A stretch of 64,000 nt of DNA, from positions 80,890 through 144,889 of the forward strand of contig JBEKWH010000006.1 in the NCBI GenBank assembly GCA_049513255.1, written 5' to 3'. Below are positions 3,155 to 60,074 of the stretch, one piece after another. How positions within the stretch are numbered: the first letter of the stretch is position 1; each line of letters opens with the position of its first letter. The notes beneath the pieces are model-generated. The model did no database searches and was not told the DNA's origin. It saw only the letters and a list, made by a program, of their open reading frames with translations. The position numbers were made by a program, and so were the translations under genes. The DNA comes from Solirubrobacteraceae bacterium. GTDB taxonomy: Bacteria > Actinomycetota > Thermoleophilia > Solirubrobacterales > Solirubrobacteraceae.

Positions 3155-3159
3155 AGACG

Positions 3160-24146: not shown

Positions 24147-24160
24147 GGAGGTGACAGCCG

Positions 24161-29623: not shown

Positions 29624-29857
29624 ATGACACGAGCTCTCCTACACCGATCTGGCCGTCGCCGAGCGCCGACCGTGCTGCCCCGCTCCGGCAGCTACGTGAC
29701 AGACGGCCGCAGGCTGTTCCGCGTCGTCTCGCAGTTCGCCTTCGCCGGCGACCACGTCGTCGCTTCGCTCGAGGACTGCCTAACGCTCGACGTGCGCGCA
29801 TACTCTCCCGACGAGCTGCACGCAATGGGGCTGCGAGCGGTTCGAACTGGCCGATGA
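29624..29857 (+). CDS. Small hypothetical protein
   Basis: ATGA overlap with the downstream USP; protein-like composition (YVTDGRRLFRVV...LEDCLTL). Confidence 0.6.
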   Translation: MTRALLHRSGRRRAPTVLPRSGSYVTDGRRLFRVVSQFAFAGDHVVASLEDCLTLDVRAYSPDELHAMGLRAVRTGR

Positions 29858-38859: not shown

Positions 38860-39597
38860 ATGCCGCCGTCGAGCAACCAACGGTCGGGCCTGACAGCGGC
38901 CGCCCGCGGCCCACGGTGGCTGGCGGCGCTGGTCGTCCTGACTGCGGTGATCGCGAGTGGACCGGCGGCGTCGCCGGCTCTCGCGAGCAGGCCGCGCGCG
39001 GCGGTCGCCGCCCCTACCGGGCGCCAGGCCGCGGCGAACCTGAGCCTCGGCTCGCACGGGCCGGCGGTGCGCACGCTGCAGAGCGCGCTCGCACGCTTGA
39101 CGTATCTGCCCTCCGACGGCGTCGACGGGGTCTTCGGCGAACGGACCTGGCACGCGGTGGTCGCGTTTCAGGGGTGGAGCGGGCTGGTGCGCGACGGCGT
39201 GGCGGGCCCGCTCACGCAGCGGGCGCTCGCGCACGCGCGGCGGCCGGTGCCGTGGTCCACAGCCACAGGGTTCGAGGTCCACATCGCTCAGCAGGTGCTG
39301 CTGCTCGTGCGCGACGGGCGGGTGCAGCGCGCGATTCACGTCTCGACCGGGCGCCCGGGCTGGCCGACGCCGGTCGGGCACTTCACGATCCTGGAACGCG
39401 ATCTGATGAGCTGGTCGGCGCCGTTCCAGGTGTGGATGCCGCTTGCGCAGTACTTCTACGACGGCTTTGCCCTGCATGAGTTCTCCGAAGTGCCCGACTA
39501 CCCCGCCTCGCACGGGTGCATCCGCGTGCCCGAAGTGGAAGCGCCGACCGTGTGGCAGTTCGGGCGTGTCGGGATGCGCCTGTGGACAAGCCCTTGA
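38860..39597 (+). CDS. L,D-transpeptidase with peptidoglycan-binding domain
   Basis: PG_binding_1 pattern LQSAL..L.Y..DG.FG..T..AV.AFQ and YkuD motif ALH...PASHGCIRV. Confidence 0.92.
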   Translation: MPPSSNQRSGLTAAARGPRWLAALVVLTAVIASGPAASPALASRPRAAVAAPTGRQAAANLSLGSHGPAVRTLQSALARLTYLPSDGVDGVFGERTWHAVVAFQGWSGLVRDGVAGPLTQRALAHARRPVPWSTATGFEVHIAQQVLLLVRDGRVQRAIHVSTGRPGWPTPVGHFTILERDLMSWSAPFQVWMPLAQYFYDGFALHEFSEVPDYPASHGCIRVPEVEAPTVWQFGRVGMRLWTSP

Positions 39598-39632
39598 GCT
39601 GGAGGCGCCAGGCCGCGACGATCACGGGCAAC

Positions 39633-41468
39633 GTGCACCCTTCGACGCTCCCCGTGCCGGCGCCCGCGTCTCAGCGCCTCAAGGACGCGAGCCGGGCTGC
39701 GCGCGGATTGGCGGCGCGTGTCGCGCGCGGGCTGTGCGTGCGCGTGCCGGGGACCGCGGCGGGTCTCGCCGCGGCGATCCCCGTGATCAACTCGACGATC
39801 AAAGCCGCACATGCGGGATGGGTGCCGGCGGGGGACGACGGGATCATCGCCACGCGCGGCTGGGACGTGCTCACCTCGCACACGCCGCTGGTCGGCCAGT
39901 ACTCCGAGGCCGGCCTGGTGATCCGCGGGCAGGTCATGCACAGCCCCGGTCCGATGCTGTACTGGCTGATCGCGCTGCCGGCGCGCTTCGGCAGCGTCAC
40001 GAGCATCGCGGTGACGATGGGCATCGTCAACACGCTGGCGATCATCGGCTGCGTCGCGCTCGCGCGCCGCCGCGGCGGCCTGGTCCTGATGTTCGCGACG
40101 GCGGCCGGGATCGCGCTGATGTGCCAGTCGCTGCCGACCGAGGCGATGCACGACATCTGGAACCCGGCGGCCGGCCTGTTCGGATTCCTGCTGCTGATCT
40201 TCCTCGGCTGGTCGCTCGCCTGCGGTGAACACCGCCTGCTGCCGATCACGGTGTTCGTCGCGAGCTTCGTCACGCAGACCCACCTGATGTACGCGGCGCC
40301 GACCGCGGTGCTGCTCGCGGTCGGCTTCGGCGGGCTCTTGATCGGGTCGCTTAGGCGCCGCCGCGTACGCGCCGCCGGCCGCGGGCCGCACTCGCAGCCG
40401 CAGCCGCAGCCGCAGCCGCCAAGGAGGATCTGGCCGTGGGCGCTGGCGGCGCTCGTGGTGGCCGGCGCGTGCTGGACCGAGCCGGCGATCGATCAGATCG
40501 AGAACAGCCCTGGGAACCTCTCGATGATCGTGCGCACCGCGGAGCACCGCGGGCCGACGCTCGGCGCGACGGCTGGTTGGCACGCGGTGGTCCGCTCGAT
40601 CGGGGTGCGGCCGTGGTGGCTGTACGTGCCCGCGTCGGAGTGGGAGCGCAAGGCGGACGTTCGCGCCACGCCGAGCAGCCGCGCCCTCGATTCGACGATC
40701 GCGCTGCTCGCGGCGCTGGCGCTGGCCGGGCTGATCGGCGCCGTCCGGCGACGGTGGGATCTCACCGCGGCGACGCTGATCGGCCTGGGGCTGTGTGCGG
40801 CGATCGGCGTCGAGGCGGCCTCCAACCCGTCGACGAGACTGCTTGCGGAAACTCTCGGCTACACGATGTGGTGGGGCTCAGAGCTGGGCCTGTGGGTGTG
40901 GCTGATGCTCGCGTGGGCGCTGTGGCTCGGGCTCATCGGCATGTCGCGCCCGCCGCTGCGGGCGCTGCGCCGCCGCATCCGCGGCGACCGCGGGGCGCTG
41001 CCCGCATGGGTGCGACCGGCTGCGGTCGTGCTCGCCTCGCTGGCGAGCATTGGCGGAGTGGCCGCTGTGGGCAGCGCGGTCGCGGCGACCGCGAAGCCGG
41101 ACTCCCACGTGTACGAGTACCGGCCGATCCGCGCGGTTGCGGCGGGCATCGAGCGCCTGATCGAACCAGGCCGGTCGATCGAATATCGCCTCGGACCGCT
41201 CGACGTCGGCACGCAGCCGATGGAGCCCGCGATCCGCTTCCTGCTCGTCCGCCACGGAGACCGCGTCCTGGCGGAGGGCTCGTACCCGCGACTCGGCTCC
41301 TACTACGAGCTGTATCACCGTCCGGTGCAGTGGACCGTGTACCTCCGCGACGGCACCCGGCGCCAGCCGCACATGACGCTCGCGGCGCGCGTCCGCTTCA
41401 CCGACCCCTGGGGCACGGACGTGCTCAGCGCGTGGGTGGCCCGCGCGAGGCGCGCACGGGCTCCGTAA
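39633..41468 (+). CDS. Multi-pass membrane protein (GT-C/ArnT-like topology); start uncertain
   Basis: GDDG..A acidic loop after TM1, HSPGPMLYWL and WNP motifs, many TMs, and an internal (QP)4 repeat. Confidence 0.65.
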   Translation: MHPSTLPVPAPASQRLKDASRAARGLAARVARGLCVRVPGTAAGLAAAIPVINSTIKAAHAGWVPAGDDGIIATRGWDVLTSHTPLVGQYSEAGLVIRGQVMHSPGPMLYWLIALPARFGSVTSIAVTMGIVNTLAIIGCVALARRRGGLVLMFATAAGIALMCQSLPTEAMHDIWNPAAGLFGFLLLIFLGWSLACGEHRLLPITVFVASFVTQTHLMYAAPTAVLLAVGFGGLLIGSLRRRRVRAAGRGPHSQPQPQPQPPRRIWPWALAALVVAGACWTEPAIDQIENSPGNLSMIVRTAEHRGPTLGATAGWHAVVRSIGVRPWWLYVPASEWERKADVRATPSSRALDSTIALLAALALAGLIGAVRRRWDLTAATLIGLGLCAAIGVEAASNPSTRLLAETLGYTMWWGSELGLWVWLMLAWALWLGLIGMSRPPLRALRRRIRGDRGALPAWVRPAAVVLASLASIGGVAAVGSAVAATAKPDSHVYEYRPIRAVAAGIERLIEPGRSIEYRLGPLDVGTQPMEPAIRFLLVRHGDRVLAEGSYPRLGSYYELYHRPVQWTVYLRDGTRRQPHMTLAARVRFTDPWGTDVLSAWVARARRARAP

Positions 41469-41498
41469 AAGACCGCAATGCGCGTGGTAGCTACCGCC
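41462..41498. promoter_or_regulatory. Two putative 16-bp regulator sites upstream of the acsA-pdh-ATPase operon
   Basis: TCCGTAAAAGACCGCA (41462) and CGTGGTAGCTACCGCC (41483). Confidence 0.5.
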
Positions 41499-41559
41499 GA
41501 TGCGGGCGCTTCGGCTGATGCCCTACGGTTCGGACGTGTCCTCCACGGGTGAGAGAGCC

Positions 41560-43359
41560 GTGACCCAAGCTCGGGGATCCGGGCATGCGGATGCGAGCTC
41601 GCACGCGCAGGGCGTTCCGCCGAACATGGTGGACTACGACGAGGCTCGCTCGACGTTCTCGTGGACGGCGGCGCGAGCGGAGCTCGCGGGCCTGCCCGGC
41701 GGCGGCTTGAACATCGCGCACGAGGCCGTCGACCGCCACGCGGATGGGCCGCTGGCAGACACGACCGCGTTGCGCTGCCTCGGCAGGCACGGGGGCGCGC
41801 GCGAGATCACCTACGCGGAGCTGCGACGCGAGACCGCCCGCTTCGCGAACGTGCTGGAGACGCTCGGCGTGCAGCGCGGGGAGCGCGTGTTCGTCCTCAG
41901 CGGGCGGATCCTCGAGCTGTATGTGGCCGCGCTGGGGACGCTCAAGCACGGCAGCGTGTTCTCGCCGCTGTTCTCGGCGTTCGGGCCCGAGCCGATCGAG
42001 CAGCGCCTGGCGCTCGGCGACGCGCGCGCGCTGATCACGACGCCGGCGCTGTACAAGCGCAAGGTCGCGCAGCTGCGCGAGCGCCTGCCACAGCTCGCGC
42101 ACGTGCTGCTGGTGGGAGACGAGGCGGAGATCGCGGCGATCCCGGACGTGCAGGACTTCAAGCGGCTGATGGGCGCGGCCGGGGACACGTACGAGATCGC
42201 CGTGACGGCTCCGGAGGACATGGCGCTGCTGCACTTCACCAGCGGCACGACCGGGACGCCGAAGGGGGCGGTGCACGTGCACGAGGCGGTCGTGGCGCAT
42301 CGTGCGACCGGGCGCACCGTGCTCGATCTGCGCCCCGGCGACGTGTTCTGGTGCACCGCCGATCCGGGCTGGGTGACCGGCACCTCCTACGGGATCATCG
42401 CCCCGCTGACGCTGGGCGTCACGAGCGTCATCGACGAGGCCGACTTCGACGCCGACCGCTGGTACACGATCCTCCAGGAGCAGCGGGTGAGCGTGTGGTA
42501 CACGGCGCCGACGGCGTTGCGGATGCTGATGCGCATCGGCGCCGAGGTCGCCCGCGAGTACGACCTCAGCTCGTTGCGCTTCATCGCGAGCGTCGGCGAG
42601 CCGCTGAACCCCGAGGTGGTCCTGTGGGGCGAGGAGGCGTTCGGCATGCCGATCCACGACAACTGGTGGCAGACGGAGACCGGCGGGATCATGGTCGCCA
42701 ACTACCGCTCGATGGACGTGCGGCCAGGGTCGATGGGCCGCCCGCTGCCGGGGATCGAGGCGGCGGTGGCGCGACGCGACGCCGAAGGCCGGCCGGTGCT
42801 CGCCGATGACGGTGGCCTCGAGCTGGTGCGCGCGCCGGAGGAGCAGGGCGAGCTGGTGCTGCGTCCGGGCTGGCCGTCGATGTTCCGCGGCTACCTCGGC
42901 GAGCAGGAGCGCTACGAGCGCTGCTTCGCCGGCGGCTGGTATCTGAGTGGCGACCTCGTGCGACGCGACGCCGACGGCTACTTCTGGTTCGTCGGGCGCG
43001 GCGATGACGTGATCAAGTCGGCGGGACACCTGATCGGCCCGTTCGAGGTGGAGAGCGCGCTGCTCGCCCACCATGCCGTCGCCGAAGCGGGCGTGATCGG
43101 CAAGCCCGATCCGGTGGCCGGGGAAATCGTCAAGGCGTTCGTCGCGCTGGCCCCGGGCCAAGAGCCGGGCGAGGAGTTGCGCAAAGAGCTGCTGGGCTTC
43201 GCGCGCCAGCGGCTCGGCGCGGCGGTCGCGCCGCGCGAGATCGACTTCGTCGCGAGCGTGCCGCGCAATCGCTCCGGCAAGATCATGCGCCGGCTGCTGA
43301 AGGCGCGCGAGCTCGGCCTGCCCGAGGGCGACGTCTCGACGCTGGAGCCGGACGCATGA
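41560..43359 (+). CDS. acsA: Acetate/acyl--CoA ligase (acetyl-CoA synthetase-like)
   Basis: [37 protein letters not shown] and RSGKIMRR motifs. Confidence 0.93.
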
Positions 43360-44369
43360 GCGCCGAGGAGCCGCTGCAGCGCGACCACGGACTGCACCTG
43401 CTGCATCAGATGCTGCGCGTGCGCCGCTTCGAGGAGAAGTGCGTGGAGCTGTACAGCGCGGCCAAGATCCGCGGCTTCATGCACCTGTACATCGGCGAGG
43501 AGGCTGTGGCCGCGGGCGTGATGGAGGCTCTGGGGCCCGAGGACGCGATCGTGGCGACCTACCGCGAGCACGGCCACGCGCTCGTGCGCGGGGTGTCCGC
43601 GGGCGCGATCATGGCGGAGATGTACGGCAAGGTCGAGGGCTGCTCGCGTGGACGCGGCGGGTCGATGCACCTGTTCGACGCGGCCACGCGCTTCTACGGC
43701 GGCAACGCGATCGTCGGCGGCGGGCTGCCGCTGGCGCTCGGCCTGGCGCTGGCGGACAAGCTGCAGGGGCGCGAGCGCGTGACCGCGTGCTTCTTCGGCG
43801 ACGGCGCGGTCGCCGAGGGCGAGTTCCACGAGTCGATGAACCTCGCCGCCCTGTGGCGGCTGCCGGTGCTGTTCTGCTGCGAGAACAACCTCTACGCGAT
43901 GGGCACCGCGATCGAGCGCTACGAGTCCGAGACCGAGCTCGCCCTGAAGGCCGCGAGCTACGAGATGCCCGCGTGGAGCGTCGACGGGATGGACGTGGTC
44001 GCGGTCGAGCACGCCGCGCGCAAGGCCGCGGCCGAGGTCCGCGGCGGGATGCCGTGCTTCCTGGAGCTGCGGACCTACCGCTTCCGCGCGCACTCGATGT
44101 ACGACCCGGACCTGTACCGCTCCAAGGATGAGATCGAGCACTGGAAGGAGCACGACCCGATCGCCGTGCTGACCAGGGCTCTGCAGGAGGGCGACATGCT
44201 CAGCGACGACGATCTGGCCGGGCTGGAGCGCGCGGTCGCGCAGGAGGTCGAGGACGCGATCGCCTTCGCGGAGTCGGGCACGCTGGAGCCGGTGGAGGAC
44301 CTGGAGCGGTTCGTTTACTGGGAGCCCGCCCACTCGGAGCCCGCCCACCCCGAGCCGGCCCGGGCATGA
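43356..44369 (+). CDS. pdhA: Pyruvate/2-oxoacid dehydrogenase E1 alpha
   Basis: TYREHG, GRGGSMH, the ThDP motif GDGA...ENN, and YRFRAHS. Confidence 0.95.
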
Positions 44370-45364
44370 GCAGCCCGGCGGCGGTCACGCTGACCTATCG
44401 CGAGGCCATGCGCCAGGCGATCCGCGAGGCGCTGCTGGGCGACGAGCGGGTGTTCCTGATGGGCGAGGACGTCGGCGCCTACGGCGGCTGCTTCGGCGTC
44501 TCCAAAGGCCTGCTCGAGGAGTTCGGGCCCGAGCGCATCCGCGACACGCCGCTGTCTGAGTCGGCGTTCGTCGGCGCGGGGATCGGCGCCGCGATGGGCG
44601 GCATGCGCCCGATCGTCGAGGTGATGACCGTCAACTTCTGCCTGCTGGCGCTCGACCAGATCATGAACAACGCCGCCACGATCACGCACATGTCCGGCGG
44701 CCAGTTCTCGATCCCGCTGGTGATCCGCATGACGACCGGCGCCGGGCGCCAGGTCGCCGCCCAGCATTCCCACAGCCTCGAGGGCTGGCTCGCCCACATC
44801 CCCGGGCTGCGGCTGCTGACCCCGGCGACACTCGCCGACGCCCGCGGGATGCTCGCGCCGTCGCTGCAGGATCCCAACCCCGTGCTGATCTTCGAGCACG
44901 GTGGGCTCTACAACCTGGAGGGCGAGCTGCCCGCCGACGCGGGCGCCGTCGACATCGAGCGCGCCGCCATCCGCCGCGCCGGCGCCGACGTGACGCTGAT
45001 CGCCTACGGGGGGACGCTGGCGACCGCGATGGACGCCGCCGATGCGCTCGCCGGGGCCGGCATCGAGGCCGAGGTGATCGACCTGCGGGTGCTGCGCCCG
45101 CTCGACGACGCGACGGTGATCGAGTCGCTTGCGAGGACCCACCGGGCAGTGATCGTCGATGAGGGCTGGCGCTCGGGCAGCCTCGCCGCGGAGGTCAGCG
45201 CGCGAATCATGGAGCAGGCCTTCTACGAGCTCGACGCCCCTGTCGCCCGCGTCTGCTCGGCGGAGGTCCCGATGCCATACGCCCAGCATCTCGAGCAGGC
45301 GGCGCTGCCGCAGGCGAGCACCGTCGTCGCCGAGGTCCAGCGGATGGTGGGCGCCGGTGGCTGA
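44366..45364 (+). CDS. pdhB: Pyruvate/2-oxoacid dehydrogenase E1 beta
   Basis: MGEDVG.YGG, DTPLSE, AAQHSHS and DLRVLRPLD motifs. Confidence 0.95.
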
Positions 45365-46616
45365 TTTCCTGATGCCCTCGCTGGGAGCCGACATGACCTC
45401 CGGCACCCTGCTCGAATGGCGCGTGAAGCCCGGCGATGAGGTCAAGCGCGGTGACATCGTCGCGGTCGTCGACACGAGCAAGGCCGAGATCGAAGTCGAG
45501 ATCTTCGAGGACGGCGTGATCGACGAGCTGCTCGTCCCCGAGGGCACCCGCGTGCCCGTCGGAACGCCGCTCGCGACCGTCCGCGCCGGCGCAGAGCAGG
45601 AGGCGCCGCCCGCACCGCCCGTACCGCCCGCGCCCGCGCGGCACGTCGCCGTGCCCGCGTCGCCGCAGCCGCTCGAGGAGCACCGTCTACGGGCCTCGCC
45701 GCTGGCGCGGCGCGTGGCCGAACAGCTCGGCGTCGACCTGGCGACGGTCGCGGGCAGCGGACAGGCCGGGGCGATCACCAGGACCGACGTGGAACACGCC
45801 GCGGCGGGTGCCGTCACGCCGGCCCCGCCGGCGCCGGCGGCTGCACCCTCGCCTGCTGCGTCTGCACCGGCGGCACCCGCTCCGGCCGCGAGCGGCGCGC
45901 TCGCCCCCCCACCCACGCCACCGGCCCCACCAACCGGGGAGCCCGGCGACCGTGCGCTGGCGATGCGCCAGGCGATCGGGGCGCTGATGGCGCGCTCGAA
46001 GCGAGAGATACCGCACTACTACCTGCAGACTCAGATCGACATGAGCGGAGCGCTCGCGTGGCTGGCGGAGCAGAACCTCGAGCGACCGATCGCCGAGCGC
46101 CTGCTGCCATCGGCGCTGCTGCTGAGCGCGGCGGCCAAGGCGGCCGCCGCGACGCCGGCGCTGAACGGCTTCTGGGTCGACGAGGCGTTTCGCCCGTCCG
46201 AGGCTGTCCACCTCGGCGTGGCGATCTCGCTGCGCGGCGGCGGCCTGGTCGCGCCGGCGCTGCACGACGCCGACCGCAGCAGCCTCGACGAGCTGATGGC
46301 CGGCCTGCGCGACCTCGTGACGCGGGCTCGAGCGGGCAGGCTGCGCGGCTCGGAGATGTCCGATCCGACGATCACCGTGACGAACCTGGGCGAGCAGGGA
46401 GTCGAACTGGTGCACGGCGTGATCTACCCGCCGCAGGTGGCGCTGGTCGGCTTCGGTGCCGTGCTGGAGCGACCGTGGGCCGTGGACGGGATGCTCGGCG
46501 CGCGGCCGATCGTGACCGCGACGCTCGCGGCCGACCATCGCGCGAGCGACGGCCACGCCGGAGGCCGCTTTCTCACCCTGATAGACCGCCTACTGCAGAA
46601 ACCGGAGGAGCTATGA
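45357..46616 (+). CDS. pdhC: Dihydrolipoamide acyltransferase E2
   Basis: Lipoyl domain DTSKAE, E3-binding domain [15 protein letters not shown], and catalytic DHRASDG. Confidence 0.94.
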
Positions 46617-46879
46617 ACGAGCAGGAGCTGCGCGACGTCGTGATCCGGGCGTTGACCGAGGTCGCACCAGATATCGACCCGGCCGCGATCGATCCCGCGG
46701 CCGATCTGGCCGAGCAGCTGGACATCGACTCGATCGACTTCCTCAACGTGCTCGTCAACGTGCACGAGCAGACGGGGATCGAGATTCCCGAGCGCGACTA
46801 CCCGAAGCTCTCCACGCTCGACGACGCGGTCGCCTATCTCCTCGCTGCACAGCCGCGAGGCGCCGGCACGGACGCGTAA
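46613..46879 (+). CDS. Acyl carrier protein
   Basis: Not a separate track ORF; ATG at 46613 overlaps the pdhC stop. Phosphopantetheine site LDIDSIDF and GIEIPERDY motif. Confidence 0.92.
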   Translation: MNEQELRDVVIRALTEVAPDIDPAAIDPAADLAEQLDIDSIDFLNVLVNVHEQTGIEIPERDYPKLSTLDDAVAYLLAAQPRGAGTDA

Positions 46880-46890
46880 CCTCCCTGCCG

Positions 46891-47319
46891 ATGACACCCC
46901 TGGCCGAGCTCCTCGACCGGCTGCGACGCCGCCGCCAGCCGCCCGGGCGCGCGGCTGCGGCGGTGGGTGTGCCCGCGGTCGAGCCCGACGTCGCCGCGGA
47001 GCTGGCGCCCCTGTTCGGCCGGCTCGACGAGATCGACGCCGAAGCGGCCGCGATCGTGCAGGCAGCCCGGTCGCAGGCGGCGGCGATCGAGCGCGACGGG
47101 CAGCGAGAGGCCGAGCGAATCCTGGAGCTGGCGAGGAGCGAGGCAGGGCTCGAAGCGGATCGCGTGCGCCGGGAGCGGCGCGAGGCGGCCGAGCTCCAGG
47201 CGCGGGCGATCCTCGCGAACGCCCGCTCCGAGGCGACGCGCCTGCGCGAGCGGGCCGCGCAGCGCGCGCCGAGCGTCGTCGAGGACGTGCTGGGGCTGCT
47301 CGTACGGGGGGCCGGTTGA
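46891..47319 (+). CDS. A/V-type ATPase peripheral stalk subunit G/H-like
   Basis: Long Ala/Glu/Arg coiled coil; first gene of the ATPase run. Confidence 0.6.
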   Translation: MTPLAELLDRLRRRRQPPGRAAAAVGVPAVEPDVAAELAPLFGRLDEIDAEAAAIVQAARSQAAAIERDGQREAERILELARSEAGLEADRVRRERREAAELQARAILANARSEATRLRERAAQRAPSVVEDVLGLLVRGAG

Positions 47320-48228
47320 GCGCCGAGTGGATCGCGGGCACGGTGCGCGGCAGGCTGCTGCTCGAACGCCGCCTGGGCGAGGAGCCCGCTCGCACGCTGG
47401 CCGCGCAGAGCTCCCTCGCCGCGGCCCAGCGCCTGCTGCTGGCAAGCGCTTACGGCCGTGACGTCGGCGCTGCGCAGGAGCTCGCTCCCGCGCAGCGCGC
47501 CGTCGCCGCGACCGCGCTGTGGCATCTGCGCATCTTCGCCGGCTGGCTGCCGCCGGACGGCGCCGTGCTGCTGCGTGCGCTCGCCGCCTGGTACGAGCTG
47601 GTCAACATCGAGCACCACATCGCCTGGATCGTCACGGGGGCCAGCCCACCGCCGCCGTTCGAGCTCGGCGGCCTCGCCACCGTCTGGCCCCGCGTCGAGC
47701 CGACGCGCAGCGCGGCCGAAGTCCGCGCGGCGCTCGCAGCGTCGCCCTGGGGAGAGCCGGCCAGCGAAGAGCCGCTCGCACTGCATCTGGCGCTGCGCGC
47801 CGGTTGGGCGCGGCGCGTCATCGACCATGCGGGTGCGGCGAGCGAGTGGGCGCGGGCGGCGGTTGCGCTGCTGGTGGCGCGCGAGCTGCTGCTGGGCGAC
47901 GGCGAGGACCAGCGGCGCCTGCTGGCGCTGCCGGGGGTGAGCGCGAGCTGGCTGTCGGCGTCGAGCGTGCCCGAGCTTGCCGCGCGCCTGCCCGCGAGGA
48001 TCGGCTGGGTGTTGCGCGAGGTGGAGCGGCCCGAGCAGCTGTGGCGTGCCGAACTGGACTGGTGGCGGCGCGTCGAGGACGACGCGCAGGCGCTGATGCG
48101 AAGCCCGGTCGGGTCGCCCGCGCTGGTCGTCGGGACGGTCGCGCTGCTCATGGCCGACGCGCGGCGAGCGGGTCAGGCGCTGGCGATCGCGGCGCTCGGC
48201 GGCAGCCAACGAATGCGAGAGCGCGCGG

Positions 48229-48242
<14 letters not shown>
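47316..48242 (+). CDS. A/V-type ATPase subunit C (d)-like, divergent
   Basis: Size, position and helical content; YELVNI resembles the subunit C ..N(I/L) motif. Confidence 0.6.
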
Positions 48243-50265
<2,023 letters not shown>

Positions 50266-50269
<4 letters not shown>

Positions 50270-50808
50270 GACGCTCCCCCCACCGGCGGGCAGCCGCGAC
50301 GCGCCGGCCCGCGGAGGTCGATCGCTGGGCGCCGGTTCGCAGCACGACACTGGCCGACGCCCACGCGGAGGCCGAACGACTCCGCGCCCAGGCAGGGGAG
50401 CGTGGAGCGGCCGCGCTCGCCGCGGCCCACGCGCGCGCTCGGGAGCTGCACGAGGACTCGATCGCGGCGGCCCGCCGCGCTGCCGACGACGACGCCCGGC
50501 GGGTGCTCTCGGCCGCGCGCAAAAGCGCACACGAGCTGCTGCTGTCGGCGCGCCGGGAGGTCTACGCCGGCGTCGCCCGTGACGTCGCCCAGCAGGCGTC
50601 GAGCCGCCGCGCGGACTACCAGGCGGTGACCGAACGGCTGATCGGCGACGCGCGGCGACGCCTGGGGGCGGACGTGCAGATCACCGACGCGCCGGACGGC
50701 GGGATCATCGCCCACGCTCCGGGACGTCAGATCGACTACTCGCTCTCGACCCAGGTCGGGCGCTGTCTGGCCGAGCTGGACGACGAGGTGGCGGCGTTGT
50801 GGAGTTGA
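50266..50808 (+). CDS. A/V-type ATPase subunit E-like
   Basis: N-terminal coiled coil followed by DGGIIA..GRQIDYSL; lies between F and A. Confidence 0.75.
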
Positions 50809-52526
50809 GCAGCGGCACGGTCACCCGCGTGAACGGGCCGATTGTCGAGGTCGCGGGACTGGGCGGGCTCGGCGTCGCTGAACTCGTGACCGTCGGACCG
50901 CGCCGGCTGGCGGGTGAGGTGCTGTCGCTGGCGGGCGAGACCGCGACCGTGCAGGTCTACGAGGAGACCTCCGGGCTGCGCCCGCGCGAGGCGGTGCTGG
51001 CGAGCGGGCATCCGCTCAGCGCCGAGCTCGGTCCCGGCCTGCTCGGCGGCGTGTTCGACGGCATGCTCCGGCGCCTGCAGGACGCCGGCCCGTGGCTGGA
51101 GCCGGGCGTCCTCACCGGGGCGCTCGATCCCGACCGGCGCTGGCGCTTCACTCCGAGCGTTCGCGCCGGCGATGACGTGGAGGCCGGCCAAGTCCTCGGC
51201 ACGGTGCCCGAGACCGGCGCGATCACCTACCGCGCGCTCGTCCCGCACGACCTCGCCGGCAGAGTCGAGACGATCCTCGACGAGGGCGAGGTCACGGTCG
51301 GCGAGACGATCGCGACCGTCGCCGGGCACGCGATCACGCTGGCCCACACATGGCCGGTGCGCCGCCCGCGGCCGGCCGCCGGGCGCCTGTCCTCCGGCCG
51401 GCCGCTGGTCACCGGGCAGCGCGCCGTCGACCTGCTGTTCCCGCTCTGCCAGGGCAGCACCGCGGGCGTGCCCGGCGGGTTCGGCACGGGCAAGACGCTG
51501 CTGCTGCAGCAGATCGCGAAGTGGTGCGACGCCGACGTGATCGTGTATGTCGGCTGCGGCGAGCGCGGCAACGAGCTCGCGGAGCTGCTCGAGGACTTCG
51601 CCGAGCTCGAGGACCCGCGCAGCGGCCAGCGGCTGATGGAGCGCACGGTCACGATCGTCAACACCTCCAACATGCCGCTGCTGGCGCGCGAGGCGAGCAT
51701 CTACACGGGTGTCACGGTCGCCGAGCACTACCGCGACATGGGCTACGACACCGTCGTGATCGCCGACTCGACCTCCCGCTGGGCCGAGGCGCTGCGCGAG
51801 TCGGCGGCACGCACCGAGGAGCTGCCCGCCGAGGAGGGCTATCCGCCGGAGCTGTCCTCGACGCTGGCCGCCTTCTACGAGCGCGCCGGGCGCTTTCAGA
51901 CGCTGACCGGCGCGCAGGCGTCGGTCACGATCCTCGGCGCGGTCTCTCCCCCCGGCGGTGACCTGGCCGAGCCGGTCACGGCGCACACGCGGCGGTTCGT
52001 GCGGGCCGTCTGGTCGCTCGACCGCCAGCTCGCCTATGCGCGCCATCACCCGGCGATCAGCTGGACCGACTCCTCCTCGCGCGACGCCGAAGCGATCGCG
52101 GCCTTCAAGGCCGCCGAGGGGGATGACGACTGGGCACAGCGCCGGCGCGAAGCCCTGCAGCTGCTGATGGACGCCGACCGGATCGAGTCGGTCGCCCAGC
52201 TGACCGGCGTCGAGAGCCTGCCCGGCCCGGAGCGCGTGACGCTCATCTCCGCGCGGCTGCTGCGCGAGGGTGTGCTGCAGCAGAGCGCGCTGAGCCTCAA
52301 CGATCGCTACTGCGCCACCGCCAAGCAGGGGGCGCTGCTCGCGCTGGTGCTCGACATCCAGCGAGCGCTGCTCGCGTCGGCAGATGGGGGCACCGCGATC
52401 GAGCGCATCGAAGCGCTCGACCTCTCCGACGTCGCGCGCATCCGCGACGAGTGCCCCGCCGACGACGTCGATGCGGTCGCGCGGCTGGGCGCCGAGATCC
52501 AGAGCCGAATCGCACGGCTGCGATGA
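50799..52526 (+). CDS. atpA: A/V-type ATPase catalytic subunit A
   Basis: VYEETSGL, Walker A GGFGTGKT, CGERGNE, DSTSRWAEALRE and PAEEGYP motifs. Confidence 0.97.
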   Translation: MELSSGTVTRVNGPIVEVAGLGGLGVAELVTVGPRRLAGEVLSLAGETATVQVYEETSGLRPREAVLASGHPLSAELGPGLLGGVFDGMLRRLQDAGPWLEPGVLTGALDPDRRWRFTPSVRAGDDVEAGQVLGTVPETGAITYRALVPHDLAGRVETILDEGEVTVGETIATVAGHAITLAHTWPVRRPRPAAGRLSSGRPLVTGQRAVDLLFPLCQGSTAGVPGGFGTGKTLLLQQIAKWCDADVIVYVGCGERGNELAELLEDFAELEDPRSGQRLMERTVTIVNTSNMPLLAREASIYTGVTVAEHYRDMGYDTVVIADSTSRWAEALRESAARTEELPAEEGYPPELSSTLAAFYERAGRFQTLTGAQASVTILGAVSPPGGDLAEPVTAHTRRFVRAVWSLDRQLAYARHHPAISWTDSSSRDAEAIAAFKAAEGDDDWAQRRREALQLLMDADRIESVAQLTGVESLPGPERVTLISARLLREGVLQQSALSLNDRYCATAKQGALLALVLDIQRALLASADGGTAIERIEALDLSDVARIRDECPADDVDAVARLGAEIQSRIARLR

Positions 52527-53935
52527 CAGCGGCGCGCGTGCCGATCGAGTACAGCTCGACGGCCTCGATTCGCGGTCCGTTGATCGTCGTCGAGGGCGTG
52601 CAGGACGTCGGCTGGAACGAGGTGGCCGAGATCCGGCTGGCCGGCGGCGAGGTGCGCCACGGCGTCGTCCTGGACGTCTCCCTCGACCACGCGATCGTCG
52701 AGGTGCTCGAGGGCACGGCCGGCATGCGCCTTGATGGGGTGCGCACCGCCTTCGGCGGTGCCCCGATGAGCGTGCCGATCACCGAGGAGTGGCTCGGCCG
52801 GGTGTGTGACGGTCGCGGAGAGCCGCTCGACGGAGGCCCCCCGATCCTCGGCAGTCACCGCCGCGAGATCAACGGCACGCCGATCAACCCCGCCGTGCGC
52901 ATCCCGCCCAGCGAGCCGATCATCACCGGTGTCAGCGCGATCGACGGGCTCGCGACGCTCGTGCGGGGCCAGAAGCTGCCGATCTTCTCGGTGGGCGGTC
53001 TTCCACACCTGGAGCTCGCCGCCCAGATCGCCGTGCAGGCGAACGTGGCGGGCGAGCCGTTCGCGGTCGTGTTCGCGGCGCTCGGGGTGACCCACGCGGA
53101 CGCGGCCTCGCTGCGGGAGACGCTCGAGACGCGCGCCGGCGAGCGGGAGACGGTGATGTTCATCAACACCGCCGAGGACCCGGTCGTCGAGCGCGTGATG
53201 ACGCCGCGCCTGGCGCTGACCGTCGCCGAGCACCTCGCGTTCGAGTGCGACCGGCACGTGCTGGTGCTGCTCGCTGACATGACCAACTACGCCGAGGCGG
53301 TGCGCCAGGTGTCGGCCGCCCGCGGGGAGGTGCCCACGCGGCGCGGCTACCCGGGCTACCTGTACAGCGACCTCGCCTCGCTGTACGAGCGCGCCGGTCG
53401 CATGCGCGGCCGCCGCGGCTCGGTGACGCTCGTGCCGGTGCTGACGATGCCCGCCGGCGACATCACGCATCCCGTGCCGGATCTGACCGGCTACATCACC
53501 GAGGGCCAGCTCGTGCTCGCAGCCGACCTGCACGCCCGCGGCGTGTACCCGCCGCTGGATCTGATGGGGTCGCTGTCGCGCCTGATGCGCAGAGGCGCCG
53601 GCGCGCAGCTGACGCGCGAGGATCATCTCGAGCTGTCCGACCAGCTGTACTCGCTGATGGCCCGAGCGCTGCAGGCGGCCGACCTCGCGGAGATCGTCGG
53701 CGCCGATGCGCTGCCCGCCGCCGACCAGCGCCTGCTGGCGTTTCGCACGGCGCTCGAGCGCGAGTTCCTCAGCCAGGGCCAGCAGGAGGCGCGCACCGTG
53801 GAGGCGACGCTCGACCTCGGCTGGCAGGTGGCCTCGCGCCTGCCTGCGTCGGAGCTGACGATGGTCAGCCGCCAGACCCTCGCCGCACGCTACCGAGGGG
53901 AGGAGACCGATGCCGAGCACGGGCACGTCGGGTAA
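52523..53935 (+). CDS. atpB: A/V-type ATPase subunit B
   Basis: RGQKLPIFS, DMTNYAEA, RGYPGYLYSDL, DITHPVPDLTGYITEGQ and SLSRLM motifs. Confidence 0.97.
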   Translation: MTAARVPIEYSSTASIRGPLIVVEGVQDVGWNEVAEIRLAGGEVRHGVVLDVSLDHAIVEVLEGTAGMRLDGVRTAFGGAPMSVPITEEWLGRVCDGRGEPLDGGPPILGSHRREINGTPINPAVRIPPSEPIITGVSAIDGLATLVRGQKLPIFSVGGLPHLELAAQIAVQANVAGEPFAVVFAALGVTHADAASLRETLETRAGERETVMFINTAEDPVVERVMTPRLALTVAEHLAFECDRHVLVLLADMTNYAEAVRQVSAARGEVPTRRGYPGYLYSDLASLYERAGRMRGRRGSVTLVPVLTMPAGDITHPVPDLTGYITEGQLVLAADLHARGVYPPLDLMGSLSRLMRRGAGAQLTREDHLELSDQLYSLMARALQAADLAEIVGADALPAADQRLLAFRTALEREFLSQGQQEARTVEATLDLGWQVASRLPASELTMVSRQTLAARYRGEETDAEHGHVG

Positions 53936-54530
53936 GGCGGCGCGGCTCGTGCTGCGTCAGCGGCTCGCCGTCGCGCGCCGCGGCGCCGACCTGCTCTCAC
54001 GCAAGCGCCAGGCGCTGCTGGCCGAGCAGCGCCGGCTGCGCGACGCAGCCACTGCGGCCGCCGGCGAGTGGGCGCAGGCGATCGCCGAGGCCGAGCGCTG
54101 GCTCGCCCGCTCGGCCCTGCTCGACGACGCCGGCGAGATCGCGCGAATCGCCTCCTATGCGCAGCACGCGCCGGAGCTGACGGTCGCCTGGGAGCCGCTG
54201 ATGGGCATCGTCCGGCCGCGCATCGCCGTCCTCGAGCAGGGCCCGGCGCCGCCGATCTCCTCGCTCGGCGGAAGCTCGGCTCTGCACTACGCAGCGCTCG
54301 CCTACCGGCGCGCGACCCGGGCGGCCGCCGCGCAGGCCGCCGCGCAGATCGCGCTCGAACAGGTCTCGCACGAGCTCGCCACCGTCGCCCGCCGCGCACG
54401 CGCGATCGAGCGACGCCTGATCCCCCGCCAGGAGGCCGAGCTGGCCACGCTCGAACTCAGCCTCGAGGAGAGCGAACGCGAGGAGGCCGCCCGCCTGCGC
54501 CTGCTGACCCGCCGCCGCGGCCAGCCCTGA
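53910..54530 (+). CDS. atpD: A/V-type ATPase subunit D
   Basis: ARRGADLLSRKR and RRARAIERRLIP...LEESERE motifs. Confidence 0.9.
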   Translation: MPSTGTSGKAARLVLRQRLAVARRGADLLSRKRQALLAEQRRLRDAATAAAGEWAQAIAEAERWLARSALLDDAGEIARIASYAQHAPELTVAWEPLMGIVRPRIAVLEQGPAPPISSLGGSSALHYAALAYRRATRAAAAQAAAQIALEQVSHELATVARRARAIERRLIPRQEAELATLELSLEESEREEAARLRLLTRRRGQP

Positions 54531-54534
54531 ATCG

Positions 54535-54600
54535 CGCGCGGGCCCACTTGAGATCCCGCGCGGGCCCATTCGAGATCCCGCGCCGGCCGACTCGAGATCC
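54535..54600. repeat. Three tandem imperfect 22-bp repeats
   Basis: CGCGCGGGCCCACTTGAGATCC, CGCGCGGGCCCATTCGAGATCC and CGCGCCGGCCGACTCGAGATCC, head to tail. Confidence 0.9.
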
Positions 54601-54611: not shown

Positions 54612-54989
54612 CTACACGCGAGCCTCCACGAGGCGCTTGATGGCGTCCAGCGTGCCCATCACTTCGCTGTCTGACGCGTCCCCGTGGGCGGTTGCGAGAA
54701 ACAGCGTCAGGTGCGAGCCATCCGGCTCGGGGCTGATCTGAATCCAGCCGTGGTAGGCGCTGTCGGGGGCGCCCCATTCGATCCGCTGCTCAGCCTGATT
54801 TGCCCGAAACCATGCCTCGCCGCGCTGCGTGTGGCCGTCATAGCGCGCCTCGATCGTGAGCTTGTCGCCCTCCCCGCGCTCCACGGCGGTCAACTGCGCC
54901 ACGTACTGCGGCAGGTTCTCCGGATCGGCGAGGGCAGCGAAGACCCGCTCGGGCGGCGCGCTTACGTGCTCGGTGTGCTCGTGCTCCAT
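54612..54989 (-). CDS. SRPBCC/polyketide-cyclase family protein
   Basis: VSAPPERVFAALAD.ENLP motif at the N-terminus. Confidence 0.85.
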   Translation of the reverse strand: MEHEHTEHVSAPPERVFAALADPENLPQYVAQLTAVERGEGDKLTIEARYDGHTQRGEAWFRANQAEQRIEWGAPDSAYHGWIQISPEPDGSHLTLFLATAHGDASDSEVMGTLDAIKRLVEARV

Positions 54990-56040: not shown

Positions 56041-56953
56041 CAGACCGGACTCGCGCGGGACGTTCGGCGGCTCGCTCGAACATCCCGCGCACGCGGTTGA
56101 CAGCAAACGCGGCTCGCGGCTGGGATCCGCGCCGGCCCGAACCCGGCGAGCCGGGTTCCCAACGGAACGTGAACAGCGCAAACGTGGCCGCCACGACGCC
56201 CCATATGAGCAGGACCTCCAGGTGCTGCCAGTGCAGCGCCGAGCCTCCCTGGATCGGGTTGAACAGGCTCTCGAGGTCGTCGGCGAACGGGCGCAGCGGA
56301 AAGAACGACGCGGTCTCCCGCAGCCAGTGCGGGGCGCTGTCGATCGGCATGAACACGTCGGATATGAAGCACAGCGGCAGGATCGTCCCCCACGCGACCG
56401 GGAGCGCCGAGTCGGCCCTGGGCACCAGCGCCGTCACCGCAAGCCCGAGCGCGCTGAAGCAGAACATGGCGACCGCTAGGACCAGCAGCGCTGCCGGCAC
56501 GGCGCTCCAGATCACTTCGAAGCCATACACGCCCGCACCGACGGCGACCACGACCACGGCCGAGATCAGCGCGACGAGCCCCGCCGAGACGAGCCGGCCG
56601 CTCATGTAGATCCACGGCGGCAGCGGTGTCCCGCGCAGCCGCTTGAGGATGCCTTCATCGCGCGCGAGGCTCGTCGCGGAGATCACGCTCATGTAGCACG
56701 CGTTGACCACCGCGAAGGCGACCATCGCCGGCGTGAAGAACTGCACGTAGGCGATCCCGCCGCGGCTGGAGAGGTGGGTGCCGCGGTACAGGAGGTTGAC
56801 CGCAAGCAGCACCATCAAAGGGATCACGAGCGTGGCGAACGATCCGATCGGAGAGCGCACGAGCACCCGCAGCTGGTAGACGACCTGCGCCGCGAGCAGC
56901 CGCCCCACGGACGGCCGCCGGGCAGGCGCGCGGCGCTGCTCAGCCGCCGCCAT
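56024..56953 (-). CDS. ABC-2 exporter permease
   Basis: RDEGILKRLRGTP motif and about six TMs. Confidence 0.9.
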   Translation of the reverse strand: MAAAEQRRAPARRPSVGRLLAAQVVYQLRVLVRSPIGSFATLVIPLMVLLAVNLLYRGTHLSSRGGIAYVQFFTPAMVAFAVVNACYMSVISATSLARDEGILKRLRGTPLPPWIYMSGRLVSAGLVALISAVVVVAVGAGVYGFEVIWSAVPAALLVLAVAMFCFSALGLAVTALVPRADSALPVAWGTILPLCFISDVFMPIDSAPHWLRETASFFPLRPFADDLESLFNPIQGGSALHWQHLEVLLIWGVVAATFALFTFRWEPGSPGSGRRGSQPRAAFAVNRVRGMFERAAERPARVRSDDTPK

Positions 56954-57857
56954 CGTCGCCGGCCTCCGTGAGCTGCAGGTAGACGTCTTCGAGCGAGGGG
57001 CCCACGACCTCCAGCCCGTGAAGCTCGATCCCGCAGCCGATCGCCCAGTTGCACAGCAGCGCCAGCACGTGCGTCGGATCCGCCGTCCGCAGGACCAGCT
57101 CGCCGTCACACAACTCGACCAGGTCGCGCACCTCGGCCGGCAGCTCAGCAACGCCGTGCGGGCTCGCCAGGCGGAACTTGATGATCGTCTCGTGCGGCGC
57201 GCTCCCGCCGAGCATGTCCGGGCTGCCCTCGGCGACGATCCGCCCGCCCGCGAGCACGACCACCCGGTCGGCGAGATGCTGGACCTCATCCATGTAGTGC
57301 GAGCTCAACACGATCGTGCGACCGAGCGAGCGCAGGCTCTCGATCAGCCGCCAGGCGCCCTGCCGCGCCCCGGGGTCGAAGCCCGTCGTCGGCTCGTCGA
57401 GGAAGATCAGGTCGGGGTCGCCGACGAGCGCGAGCGCCAGGTCGAGGCGACGACGCTGACCGCCGGACAGCGTCTTCACGCGCGCGCCGCGCTTGTCCTC
57501 GAGGCCGACCAGCTCGATCACGTCATCTGCCGGCAGCGCACGCGGATAGCACCCGCCGTACAGCGCCAGCACCTCGTGCACCGACAGCTCGCCGTCGAGG
57601 CCGGCCGACTGCAGCACGATCCCGATTCGCTCGCGCAGCGTGCGCCCGCCGAGCTCGGGATCGAGGCCGAGCACCGACACGCGTCCGCCACTGCGGCGGC
57701 GGTGACCCTCGAGGATCTCGAGCGTCGTCGTCTTGCCCGCCCCGTTGGGGCCGAGCAACGCGAGCACCTCTCCGTCCTCCACCCGAAAGCTCACACCACG
57801 AAGCGCGTCCACAGACCCGTAGCTCTTGAAGAGGCTGTCAACCTCGATCGCCGTCAT
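56940..57857 (-). CDS. ABC exporter ATP-binding protein
   Basis: GPNGAGKTT, LSGGQRRR, FLDEPTTG and SSH motifs. Confidence 0.95.
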   Translation of the reverse strand: MTAIEVDSLFKSYGSVDALRGVSFRVEDGEVLALLGPNGAGKTTTLEILEGHRRRSGGRVSVLGLDPELGGRTLRERIGIVLQSAGLDGELSVHEVLALYGGCYPRALPADDVIELVGLEDKRGARVKTLSGGQRRRLDLALALVGDPDLIFLDEPTTGFDPGARQGAWRLIESLRSLGRTIVLSSHYMDEVQHLADRVVVLAGGRIVAEGSPDMLGGSAPHETIIKFRLASPHGVAELPAEVRDLVELCDGELVLRTADPTHVLALLCNWAIGCGIELHGLEVVGPSLEDVYLQLTEAGDDGGG

Positions 57858-58621
57858 CGCGCAAGCAGCGTAAGCCCCTCGCGCGCGCGGGCTCTCCCAT
57901 CCGAGCGTCCGCAGCGTTCAACGCTCTCCGGCCGCGCACGCTCGGCAACCGCTCGCGCGATCTCCTGCGCGCTCGCCTCACCGAGTCCGAGCTCCACGAG
58001 CCCGGTCAGACGCCTGCGCAGATCACTCTGCAGGGCTGCGTCGACGATGGGCCACAGCTCGCACGGGCTGACGACCACGAGCTGGTCGAAGGCGCGACGC
58101 CGGTCGGCGCGCAGCAGCAGCTCGGTGACGCGCCGCGCGCGCCTGCGGTCGCAATCGTCGTGCACGGTCGCGAACTCCACGAGCATGCGCGATGAGCCTC
58201 GAAACAGTCGCGCCGCGCACCGGTCGACGACGGCGACGGCGTGGTCCCCGGGGCTGAAGATGCCCGCCAGCGGCTCGAGCCACGGCGAGGTGTCGATGAC
58301 CGCCATCGGTCCGACCGGGCTCGGCAGCGGGACGGCGGCGACCGCGGTCCCTTTCGCTGAGGAGAACAGGGCGAGGCTCCGCGTGCCGTAAGCCAGCCCC
58401 GGCGTGCAGCGCAGCATCGCATGCAGACGGCCTACGTCGGCCTCCACAGACCGCCGCTCTGTGTCAGCCATCAAGCGCTCGAGCGCATGCTCCCGCGTGG
58501 CTGCGCTTGAAGATCCCGTGCAGTCGAGGCCGAGGTAGACGCTCAGCACGGGATCGCCACCGGTCTCGAGCTCACCGAGCCGGCGCAGCGTGCCGATCCC
58601 TACCGCGGGCGCTGCCATCAC
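57854..58621 (-). CDS. Bacterial eRF1-like (baeRF/VLRF-type) protein, internally deleted and truncated
   Basis: PVLSVYL, LPSPV...D.SP.LEPL, VVDR..ARLF and FDQLVV motifs. The GGQ-equivalent loop and the C-terminal domain are not visible. Confidence 0.62.
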   Translation of the reverse strand: MMAAPAVGIGTLRRLGELETGGDPVLSVYLGLDCTGSSSAATREHALERLMADTERRSVEADVGRLHAMLRCTPGLAYGTRSLALFSSAKGTAVAAVPLPSPVGPMAVIDTSPWLEPLAGIFSPGDHAVAVVDRCAARLFRGSSRMLVEFATVHDDCDRRRARRVTELLLRADRRRAFDQLVVVSPCELWPIVDAALQSDLRRRLTGLVELGLGEASAQEIARAVAERARPESVERCGRSDGRARAREGLTLLAR

Positions 58622-58662
58622 GCCCGGCCCTCCTGCGATTCCGCGGCGGCGGCCATGACCGC

Positions 58663-59877: not shown

Positions 59878-60074
59878 GAACTTGAGGGCTGCTTGCGCGC
59901 CGTCCCGGCTGCAATATCCGCCGACCAGCGCATTTTGCGTCTGCATGACAGAAATTAATACTCTTGCGCGATCGGGGCATCCGCAGGCCGCCACCGGGAT
60001 CGAGCCGGAAACTACGGAGCCGGCCGCCCCCCGGGGGTCTACGATCGGCGGTTGATGATGAGAGCGTCGTCGCG

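Follow-up and report, generated by a model that had tools for sequence, protein, structure and literature searches.

Among described rotary ATPases, those that can best be compared with the enzyme considered here are the V/A-ATPase of Thermus thermophilus, encoded in the order atpG-I-L-E-C-F-A-B-D, and the Na+-translocating V-ATPase (ntp) of Enterococcus hirae, which is likewise a bacterial enzyme of the A/V type, has a four-helix c subunit with one ion site, and works there as an ATP-driven pump. For the genes that accompany our ATPase, the described counterparts are acsA together with acoABCL of Bacillus subtilis, pyruvate dehydrogenase (PDH) of the alpha-proteobacterial/mitochondrial type, and natural-product systems of the QncN/QncL/QncM type, in which an E1/E2 pair lies beside a stand-alone carrier protein and which offer a precedent for transfer from a lipoyl group to an acyl carrier protein (ACP). 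Here we describe a locus in a 64-kb stretch of DNA from a Solirubrobacteraceae bacterium (the window, with a G+C content of about 71-72%), in which a five-gene cassette (acsA, the genes of E1 alpha, E1 beta and E2, and an ACP gene) directly precedes the genes of an A/V-type ATPase. The 14 genes are best read as one transcription unit, in which two autonomous and widespread modules have been joined head to tail in a Solirubrobacteraceae lineage.

All 14 open reading frames (ORFs) lie on the + strand between 41500 and 54530, as judged from the ORF list, from Pfam and NCBIfam matches, and from genes called independently in other assemblies of this locus. Successive genes overlap in the cassette (acs/E1 alpha, 4 nt; E1 alpha/E1 beta, 4 nt; E1 beta/E2, 8 nt, with a GTG start at 45357; E2/ACP, 4 nt) and in the ATPase (H/C, 4 nt; C/I, 14 nt; I/K, 4 nt; K/F, 4 nt; F/E, 4 nt from ATG 50266 or 22 nt from GTG 50248; E/A, 10 nt; A/B, 4 nt; B/D, 26 nt), and the only gap is that of 11 nt between ACP and the first ATPase gene. 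This is the layout given in an earlier note on this DNA (hereafter the original prediction), which had described same-strand ORFs with overlaps of 4-26 nt and a single 11-nt gap. The nearest genomes to the locus are Solirubrobacteraceae metagenome-assembled genomes (subunit C/d profile search, one genome per species), and metagenomes from peat, wetland, soil and permafrost contain the locus sequence as well. At least 22 contigs from independent assemblies share this arrangement, as do the genomes of six related species (L001-L006), and the locus is therefore not an assembly artefact or a chimera. In the six genomes the ACP/ATPase spacing is also identical, at 11 nt.

A terminator scan found none at any gene junction, the only + strand matches being inside atpI (48761-48780), and the RNA of the ACP/ATPase junction has no hairpin and folds no better than shuffled sequence (z = -0.8), in keeping with the earlier statement that no terminator is visible. 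A transcript boundary at 46880-46890 had been named as a sign that the two halves are separate; there is no boundary signal at this place, and two RNA contigs from two metatranscriptomes cross the 46879/46891 junction without mismatches (X21, 46540-46917; X22, 46822-46976). Other mismatch-free RNA contigs cover parts of acs, E1 alpha, ACP, atpC, atpK/F and atpA, so that both halves are detected. The depth of these contigs is uneven (in X23, 12.5 for ACP and 3-5 elsewhere), which favours RNA rather than contaminating DNA as their source. The metatranscriptome contigs thus support co-transcription of the two halves, short of proof.

Judged from its predicted products, the cassette is a five-gene C2/C3 module with the fixed order AcsA-E1alpha-E1beta-E2-ACP. 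AcsA contains AMP-binding and AMP-binding_C domains and the SGKIMRR catalytic/regulatory lysine motif, and is of the same NCBIfam equivalog type (NF003313) as the AcsA of B. subtilis. The start of acs is uncertain, and may be ATG 41500, GTG 41560 or a codon further downstream (the product is 619 or 577 aa long according to other gene callers). E1 alpha carries the GDG...NN thiamine-diphosphate motif, and E2 has the DHRASDG catalytic motif and a lipoyl lysine. As in the B. subtilis aco system and in PDH, E1 is of the E1alpha/E1beta heterotetrameric kind, and E2 has lipoyl and E3-binding domains. The cassette differs from these systems in having no E3 gene, in including a dedicated ACP in the unit, and in its E2, whose score is under the cut-off of every NCBIfam equivalog; the substrate might be pyruvate, acetoin or a different 2-oxo compound. 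No gene for E3 (dihydrolipoyl dehydrogenase) was found in the operon or in the cassette loci examined, and this component must come from elsewhere in the genome. The ACP family has a DIDSIDFL serine motif, with Asp39, Ser40, Asp42 and Phe43 invariant in the alignment, and E2 lies immediately 5' of ACP in essentially all of 80 metagenome loci. In contrast to the QncN/QncL/QncM-type systems, there is no nonribosomal peptide synthetase or polyketide synthase context here, the E1 is not transketolase-like but of the PDH type, and the cassette occurs in stress islands.

The second half is, by the predicted identity of its genes, a complete nine-subunit A/V-type rotary ATPase in the order G/H-C-I-K-F-E-A-B-D, which is kept in all fetched loci of the 80-locus survey described below that reach far enough. 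The subunit inventory is that of the T. thermophilus enzyme, but here C precedes I and F precedes E. The first gene encodes a 142-aa protein with no Pfam match and with weak NCBIfam matches to F-type b and V-type E/H subunits (E about 1e-3); its family is the conserved first operon gene in at least 20 loci. The 308-aa product of the second gene also has no Pfam match, although 10 of 16 homologs match PF01992, and the subunit C/d alignment, used as a profile against PDB sequences, found no match. Its AlphaFold2 model (mean predicted local distance difference test score, pLDDT, 90.6) has T. thermophilus V/A-ATPase subunit C as the top Foldseek matches (8ywt_M and 1r5z; TM 0.64, probability 1.00), and structure prediction together with Foldseek thereby settles its identity. 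The earlier assignment of the two halves as acsA-pdhABC-ACP and a complete A/V-type ATPase is therefore borne out by Pfam and NCBIfam and by the structure of this ORF.

Subunits I and c of this clade are unusual. Residues 27-458 of subunit I align with residues 190-646 of T. thermophilus subunit I, so that the membrane part is retained; the soluble N-terminal domain is not full-length, with only about 110 residues before the membrane domain and about 165-190 N-terminal residues lacking. The short form (about 468 aa, with roughly half of the soluble N-terminal domain gone) is found clade-wide, in the homologs of L001-L080 and L161, and may mean that there is a single peripheral stalk. The best PDB match to subunit I is that of E. 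hirae (8wci_P, E = 8e-24). The c subunit has two extra N-terminal hydrophobic helices, followed by one canonical hairpin with a single Glu (GLAEG). The N-terminal helix pair, which contains an RR loop and an Ala/Thr-rich linker, is unrelated to ATP-synt_C and is conserved across the clade; it has no counterpart in T. thermophilus, and differs from the four-helix c subunit of E. hirae, which is a duplicated hairpin. Also unlike the E. hirae enzyme, a Na+-site motif is not established here, and regulation and gene context differ; with respect to T. thermophilus, the context differs in the C2 cassette and stress genes that are fused to the ATPase or lie nearby. Subunit E is 180 aa according to other gene callers. 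Subunit A has GGFGTGKT (Walker A) and GCGERGNE motifs and the non-homologous insert domain, and its best solved relatives are subunits A of T. thermophilus and Pyrococcus (E about 1e-160). Coordinates of the operon and of other window genes are collected in Table 1.

Table 1. Positions of the operon features and of further genes in the window, with the basis of each assignment.
Feature	Position	Strand	Basis or remark
Probable promoter and 5' leader	41440-41559	+	-10-like element, palindrome; inferred
acsA, AMP-forming acetate--CoA ligase	41500-43359	+	NF003313 equivalog, 909 bits (cut-off 729)
E1 alpha, heterotetrameric PDH-type 2-oxoacid dehydrogenase	43356-44369	+	TIGR03182, 449 bits (cut-off 394); E1_dh
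E1 beta	44366-45364	+	NF006667, 399 bits (cut-off 321); Transket_pyr, Transketolase_C
E2, dihydrolipoyl acyltransferase	45357-46616	+	Biotin_lipoyl, E3_binding, 2-oxoacid_dh domains
Acyl carrier protein, 88 aa	46613-46879	+	PP-binding domain PF00550
Gap between ACP and first ATPase gene, 11 nt	46880-46890	+	cctccctgccg; sole gap in operon
First ATPase gene, probable peripheral-stalk G/H-like, 142 aa, coiled-coil-like	46891-47319	+	Position, composition, weak matches
Subunit C (d/AC39), rotor socket, 308 aa	47316-48242	+	Structure prediction and Foldseek
Subunit I (a), stator and ion channel, 468 aa	48229-49635	+	V_ATPase_I domain; arginine motif present
Subunit K (c), 139 aa	49632-50051	+	ATP-synt_C matches residues 76-135 only
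Subunit F	50048-50269	+	ATP-synt_F
Subunit E, peripheral stalk	50266-50808	+	vATP-synt_E, 27.6 bits (cut-off 24.2); alternative GTG 50248
Subunit A, catalytic	50799-52526	+	ATP-synt_ab, ATP-synt_ab_Xtn, ATP-synt_VA_C
Subunit B, non-catalytic	52523-53935	+	ATP-synt_ab, ATP-synt_VA_C; degenerate P-loop GGLPHLE
Subunit D, central stalk, final operon gene	53910-54530	+	ATP-synt_D, E = 1e-29
Acetyl-CoA hydrolase/transferase	3085-4410		Window gene
HSP20	10454-10891		Window gene
PPDK-like protein, 1193 aa	18965-22546		Window gene
DUF5335-DUF2267-Usp run	23311-24550		Window genes
PRTases	24535-25911 and 28639-29541		Window genes
Second Usp	29854-30711		Window gene
baeRF10	57854-58621		Window gene
GDE-like hydrolase	59964-62381		Window gene

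The subunit C/d profile, searched against one genome per species, found relatives of this subunit in 463 species genomes, and the best 80 of these loci were examined with 10-kb flanks. In 17 of the 80 the cassette lies within 10 kb of the ATPase, in at least five arrangements. Direct tandem fusion, with the cassette running into the ATPase, is seen in the window, in L001-L006, in two Acidimicrobiia (L035 and L050), and on metagenome contigs L081, L086, L087 and L134; the adjacency is accordingly not unique to this genome, and direct fusion is limited to some Solirubrobacterales and the two Acidimicrobiia. Elsewhere the cassette is upstream in tandem with 1-5 genes between (L018, L072, and L078, a Streptomyces), is divergent from the ATPase across a shared 44-nt intergenic region (L034), follows the ATPase on the same strand (L011, L043 and metagenome contig L084), or is convergent with it (L038, L041, L080, a Streptomyces, and L161-L164). 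In L161-L164 the ATPase operon ends in a Usp gene, and is preceded by M50-CBS and erythromycin-esterase-like genes. Outside the close relatives, 11 linked loci are found among 74 genomes, where fewer than one is expected by rough arithmetic for random placement in a genome of 4-9 Mb; proximity has therefore been maintained through repeated rearrangement. The cassette was surveyed separately with an ACP profile, which has 557 relatives on metagenome contigs and 2588 matching proteins in a protein collection, and the full acs-E1alpha-E1beta-E2-ACP order is present on twenty metagenome contigs. Where the cassette stands alone, its neighbours include genes for RtcB, PolX, NAD synthase, a phosphoribosyl pyrophosphate synthetase-like protein, ribonucleotide reductase, an alpha/beta-hydrolase and Usp. 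Both halves are autonomous modules, which are often but not obligatorily neighbours.

Some ATPase loci that otherwise have no cassette at this place retain decayed pieces of one. An ACP-like pseudogene lies 5' of the ATPase in L055 (8974-9555), and an E2 C-terminal fragment with ACP is found in the same place in L064 (5698-6264); these remnants suggest ancestral adjacency followed by loss. One locus among the best 80, L063 (Candidatus Limnocylindria, Chloroflexota), is from outside the Actinomycetota. It has perfect and near-perfect copies of the GGGAC-N4-GTCCC box considered below upstream of the ATPase, as well as E1beta/E2 fragments, a hint that the modules have been transferred horizontally.

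The literature searched yielded no description of the cassette, of the physiology of the ATPase clade, or of the linkage between them, so that the coupled operon is, as the original prediction held, without a prior description there. One taxonomic paper mentions that an actinomycete has genes of an A/V-type ATP synthase, and the DosR/OsdR regulon papers examined do not mention an A/V-ATPase or an AcsA-PDH-ACP cassette. In summary of the comparison with described systems, the ATPase is a true A/V-type enzyme in a clade-specific variant, the cassette consists of known kinds of enzyme plus a dedicated ACP, and their pairing is a real association, not a single indivisible new system.

The genes around both modules give the main indication of their physiological setting. 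The 74 distant genomes contribute 150 genes that lie closest to their ATPase operons; the most frequent types are CBS (11), Usp (8), 4Fe-4S (6), DUF2267 (5), PNPOx (5), KdpA (4) and M50 (4), and further neighbours are Sdh/Frd, GH65, GDE-like and P-type ATPase genes. In several Solirubrobacterales, a co-oriented Usp, DUF2267 or CBS gene is directly 5' of the ATPase, in the position held by the cassette in the window. On a 2-Mb Solirubrobacterales contig (L165), a cassette that has no ATPase beside it lies among genes for M50-CBS, baeRF10, a PRTase, two Usp proteins and a NiFe hydrogenase. Overall, the typical neighbours of both modules are Usp, CBS, DUF2267, HSP20, M50-CBS, baeRF10, PRTase and a group-3-like NiFe hydrogenase, and the best reading is that both modules belong to a hypoxia/dormancy-type stress gene pool of the Actinomycetota. 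The whole 64-kb window, to go by its predicted genes (Table 1), reads like a stress/dormancy island, and its inventory closely resembles that of the mycobacterial DosR regulon. The neighbours shared with the mycobacterial DosR/DevR regulon are Usp, CBS, M50-CBS, eRF1-like baeRF, PRTase, HSP20, ferredoxin, P-type ATPase, GH65 and hydrogenase; no DosR/DosS pair was identified here.

Several smaller observations concern the same regions. Genes for GAPDH, a NUDIX protein, a LonB-like protease and GT4 are also present within 2048-31853 and 56940-62381 of the window. In L165 (14449-19453), the cassette is 4 kb from the hydrogenase cluster (NAD_binding/DHODB_Fe-S, Oxidored_q6, NiFeSe_Hases, HycI), and the contig also carries a gene for a cNMP-binding protein. 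At the 5' end of the operon, the gene of an upstream membrane protein (39516-41468) was considered as a member of the unit and dropped, as it is found in only three of six close relatives. At the 3' end, the next gene after atpD (54612-54989, - strand) encodes a small SRPBCC/Polyketide_cyc2 protein. A 100%-identical RNA contig (54629-54887) of this gene is present in three metatranscriptomes, with depths of 5.6 in X21, 6.3 in X22 and 15.7 in X23, those in X22 and X23 being above the operon genes. Directly 3' of the atpD stop codon, at 54533-54600, are three tandem 22-bp repeats (CGCGCGGGCCCAYTYGAGATCC-like), which might be an operon-end or regulatory element; this region folds no better than shuffled sequence, and an Rfam search 3' of atpD found no match.

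Upstream of acs, a -10-like TAAAAG at 41466-41471 overlaps the stop codon of the preceding gene, and a perfect 10-bp palindrome (GGTAGCTACC) lies at 41486-41495. L001, L004 and L006 share this conserved block, and other Solirubrobacterales have similar ones that are GTAG/CGTA-rich. The regulator sites proposed earlier (41462 and 41483) are therefore present as sequence and conserved in the closest relatives; their function is putative. A scan of the window for the sigma-70 consensus, which is of little use at 72% G+C, found none. A scan for DosR boxes found none near 41400-41560 and a window total below that of shuffled sequence; direct DosR control of the window operon is rejected because there is no box upstream of acs and no enrichment. 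Comparison of the acs-upstream with the ATPase-upstream regions in Solirubrobacterales gave a loose GTAG/CGTA-rich likeness and no convincing common site.

The picture is different in other orders. The palindrome GGGAC-N4-GTCCC, with at most one mismatch, is matched 13 times in the regions upstream of the ATPase in non-Solirubrobacterales (11 of 43 loci), compared with 2.85 expected from intergenic controls. It ranked third in an unbiased enumeration of 5-N4-5 palindromes in these regions, and the two ranked above it are GC-rich and reflect coding sequence within the regions tested. Similar boxes also occur upstream of acs in L035, L050 and L072. These palindromes are like the Dev box of the mycobacterial DosR/DevR system, but none is found in the window's own order. 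A separate palindrome, CACGG-N6-CCGTG (at most one mismatch), has 14 copies window-wide, eight of them intergenic (7565, 7582, 7882, 10096, 23241, 25960, 38125 and 56613), of which one precedes the DUF5335-DUF2267-Usp run and another a PRTase gene; it may be a regulator site. Upstream of acs it is absent at the N6 spacing, and a 9-nt-spaced version is present at the acs start (41545-41563).

On balance, we think it somewhat more likely than not that the operon is a lineage-specific fusion of two hypoxia/dormancy-type modules, in which the ATPase would pump ions at the expense of ATP, a role that we infer. When respiration is limited, the cassette would act at the pyruvate/acetyl-thioester/acetate node, and would either yield ATP by substrate-level phosphorylation or scavenge acetate; the A/V-ATPase would hydrolyse ATP, pump H+, and hold the proton-motive force and the internal pH. 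In mycobacterial F-type synthases ATP hydrolysis is latent, and they would be poorly suited to ATP-driven pumping. This latency and the four-helix, single-carboxylate c subunit are compatible with a pump, and do not prove one.

A number of points weigh against this reading. In 63 of the 80 loci no cassette lies within 10 kb of the ATPase, and nearly all cassette-bearing metagenome contigs are without an ATPase, the two being adjacent in only five Solirubrobacterales-like contigs; the linkage is therefore facultative. The RNA contigs are low-depth, unstranded and assembled, and are also compatible with an internal promoter or with contaminating DNA. No DosR-type box is present in the window or in any Solirubrobacterales locus examined, and neither a regulator nor a shared motif was found from the acs-upstream and ATPase-upstream regions of Solirubrobacterales or from the palindromes of the window. 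As for the enzymes, the direction of the ATPase, as pump or synthase, is not readable from sequence, and the closest solved enzyme, that of T. thermophilus, is a synthase. AMP-forming AcsA usually runs toward acetyl-CoA, PDH yields NADH, which is unhelpful in hypoxia unless disposed of (e.g., as H2), E3 is not encoded at the locus, and the dedicated ACP is not accounted for by a pump. Consequently, two proposals of the original prediction stand in part. Its single coupled module agrees with the recurrent linkage and with RNA across the junction, but not with the many loci in which the ATPase or the cassette is alone, and its hypoxia/dormancy role is backed by gene context and by the DosR-like boxes of other lineages, but not by any such box in the window.

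The points about the enzymes bear directly on the other readings. If the A/V-ATPase were an alternative ATP synthase, working for example at a low or acidic-side proton-motive force, the cassette would supply respiration with acetyl-CoA made from acetate and pyruvate, and the operon would be an aerobic or micro-oxic energy-harvesting unit instead of a pump. The closest solved relatives of subunit A, from T. thermophilus and Pyrococcus, are indeed synthases, AcsA scores as a bona fide acetate--CoA ligase, which normally works in the assimilatory direction, and there is one carboxylate per canonical c-subunit hairpin. We regard this as unlikely, if the strongest of the alternatives: the neighbouring genes are those of stress, dormancy and hydrogenase rather than respiration, a four-helix c subunit with a single carboxylate is a layout usually tied to a lower ion/ATP ratio, and the DosR-like boxes in other lineages point to induction upon respiratory failure. 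A bolder form of the pump, which would give the ACP a part, is a two-part "fermentative membrane energiser" for obligate aerobes. Here E1/E2 would pass acetyl from pyruvate onto the dedicated ACP and not onto CoA, AcsA would run backwards (acetyl-S-ACP + AMP + PPi to acetate + ATP), and proton pumping by the ATPase, which has a short subunit I of the single-stalk type and a c ring of the four-helix, one-carboxylate kind, would consume this ATP. The proton-motive force would thus be kept during anoxic dormancy, when the F-type synthase is unable to reverse. We offer this as a rather unlikely elaboration. The ACP might alternatively make the cassette biosynthetic, with E1/E2 and the ligase loading acetyl or a short acyl group onto ACP to prime a storage or other lipid in dormancy, and with the ATPase as a mere neighbour in the same regulon. 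That the dedicated ACP invariably follows E2, that QncN/L/M-type systems provide a precedent for E1/E2-to-ACP transfer, and that a PlsC-type acyltransferase gene lies just downstream of the operon on the other strand would all suit such a role; however, the PlsC neighbour is limited to the closest relatives, and the cassettes of the other genomes examined are not accompanied by a ketosynthase, acyltransferase or reductase, which leaves this reading improbable.

Two further explanations are of a different kind. The operon could serve in an acid/organic-acid stress response in peat, where AcsA and PDH would clear acetate and pyruvate, which enter cells as weak acids and uncouple them, and the ATPase would expel the protons carried in. 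Peat and wetland metagenomes contain the organism, some genomes have KdpA and P-type ATPase genes next to the ATPase operon, and other Gram-positive bacteria are well known to regulate their internal pH by pumping protons out at the expense of ATP. The same ATPase clade, with the same neighbours, is nevertheless present in non-acidic soil actinomycetes (Lentzea, Saccharopolyspora and Actinoplanes), and the neighbours look hypoxia/dormancy-type rather than acid-resistance-type; we consider acid stress decidedly unlikely as the role of the operon, although somewhat easier to defend than a biosynthetic cassette. Finally, two mobile or island-borne modules might simply have come to lie side by side, with read-through of no physiological meaning. 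Both modules are autonomous, their flanks are highly variable, and the arrangement shifts even inside one order, all as expected of neutral juxtaposition. The proximity survives at least five rearrangements across Thermoleophilia, Acidimicrobiia and Actinomycetes, far above random, and the clade of the window keeps the 11-nt gap without a terminator in six species, which makes this the least credible of the explanations, and a very improbable one.

How aerobes such as mycobacteria, streptomycetes and soil actinobacteria hold their membrane potential when starved of oxygen and not growing has long been a question. The locus provides a concrete, testable candidate, in that a second, archaeal-type rotary ATPase is present in hundreds of actinobacterial species, and a cassette without a described function is repeatedly linked to this dormancy-context ATPase. 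The short subunit I and the unusual c subunit of the clade are in addition of structural interest. Carriers of the ATPase include several genera in culture (Lentzea, Saccharopolyspora, Actinoplanes, Streptosporangium, Nonomuraea and some Streptomyces), so that both genetics and biochemistry of the system are feasible.

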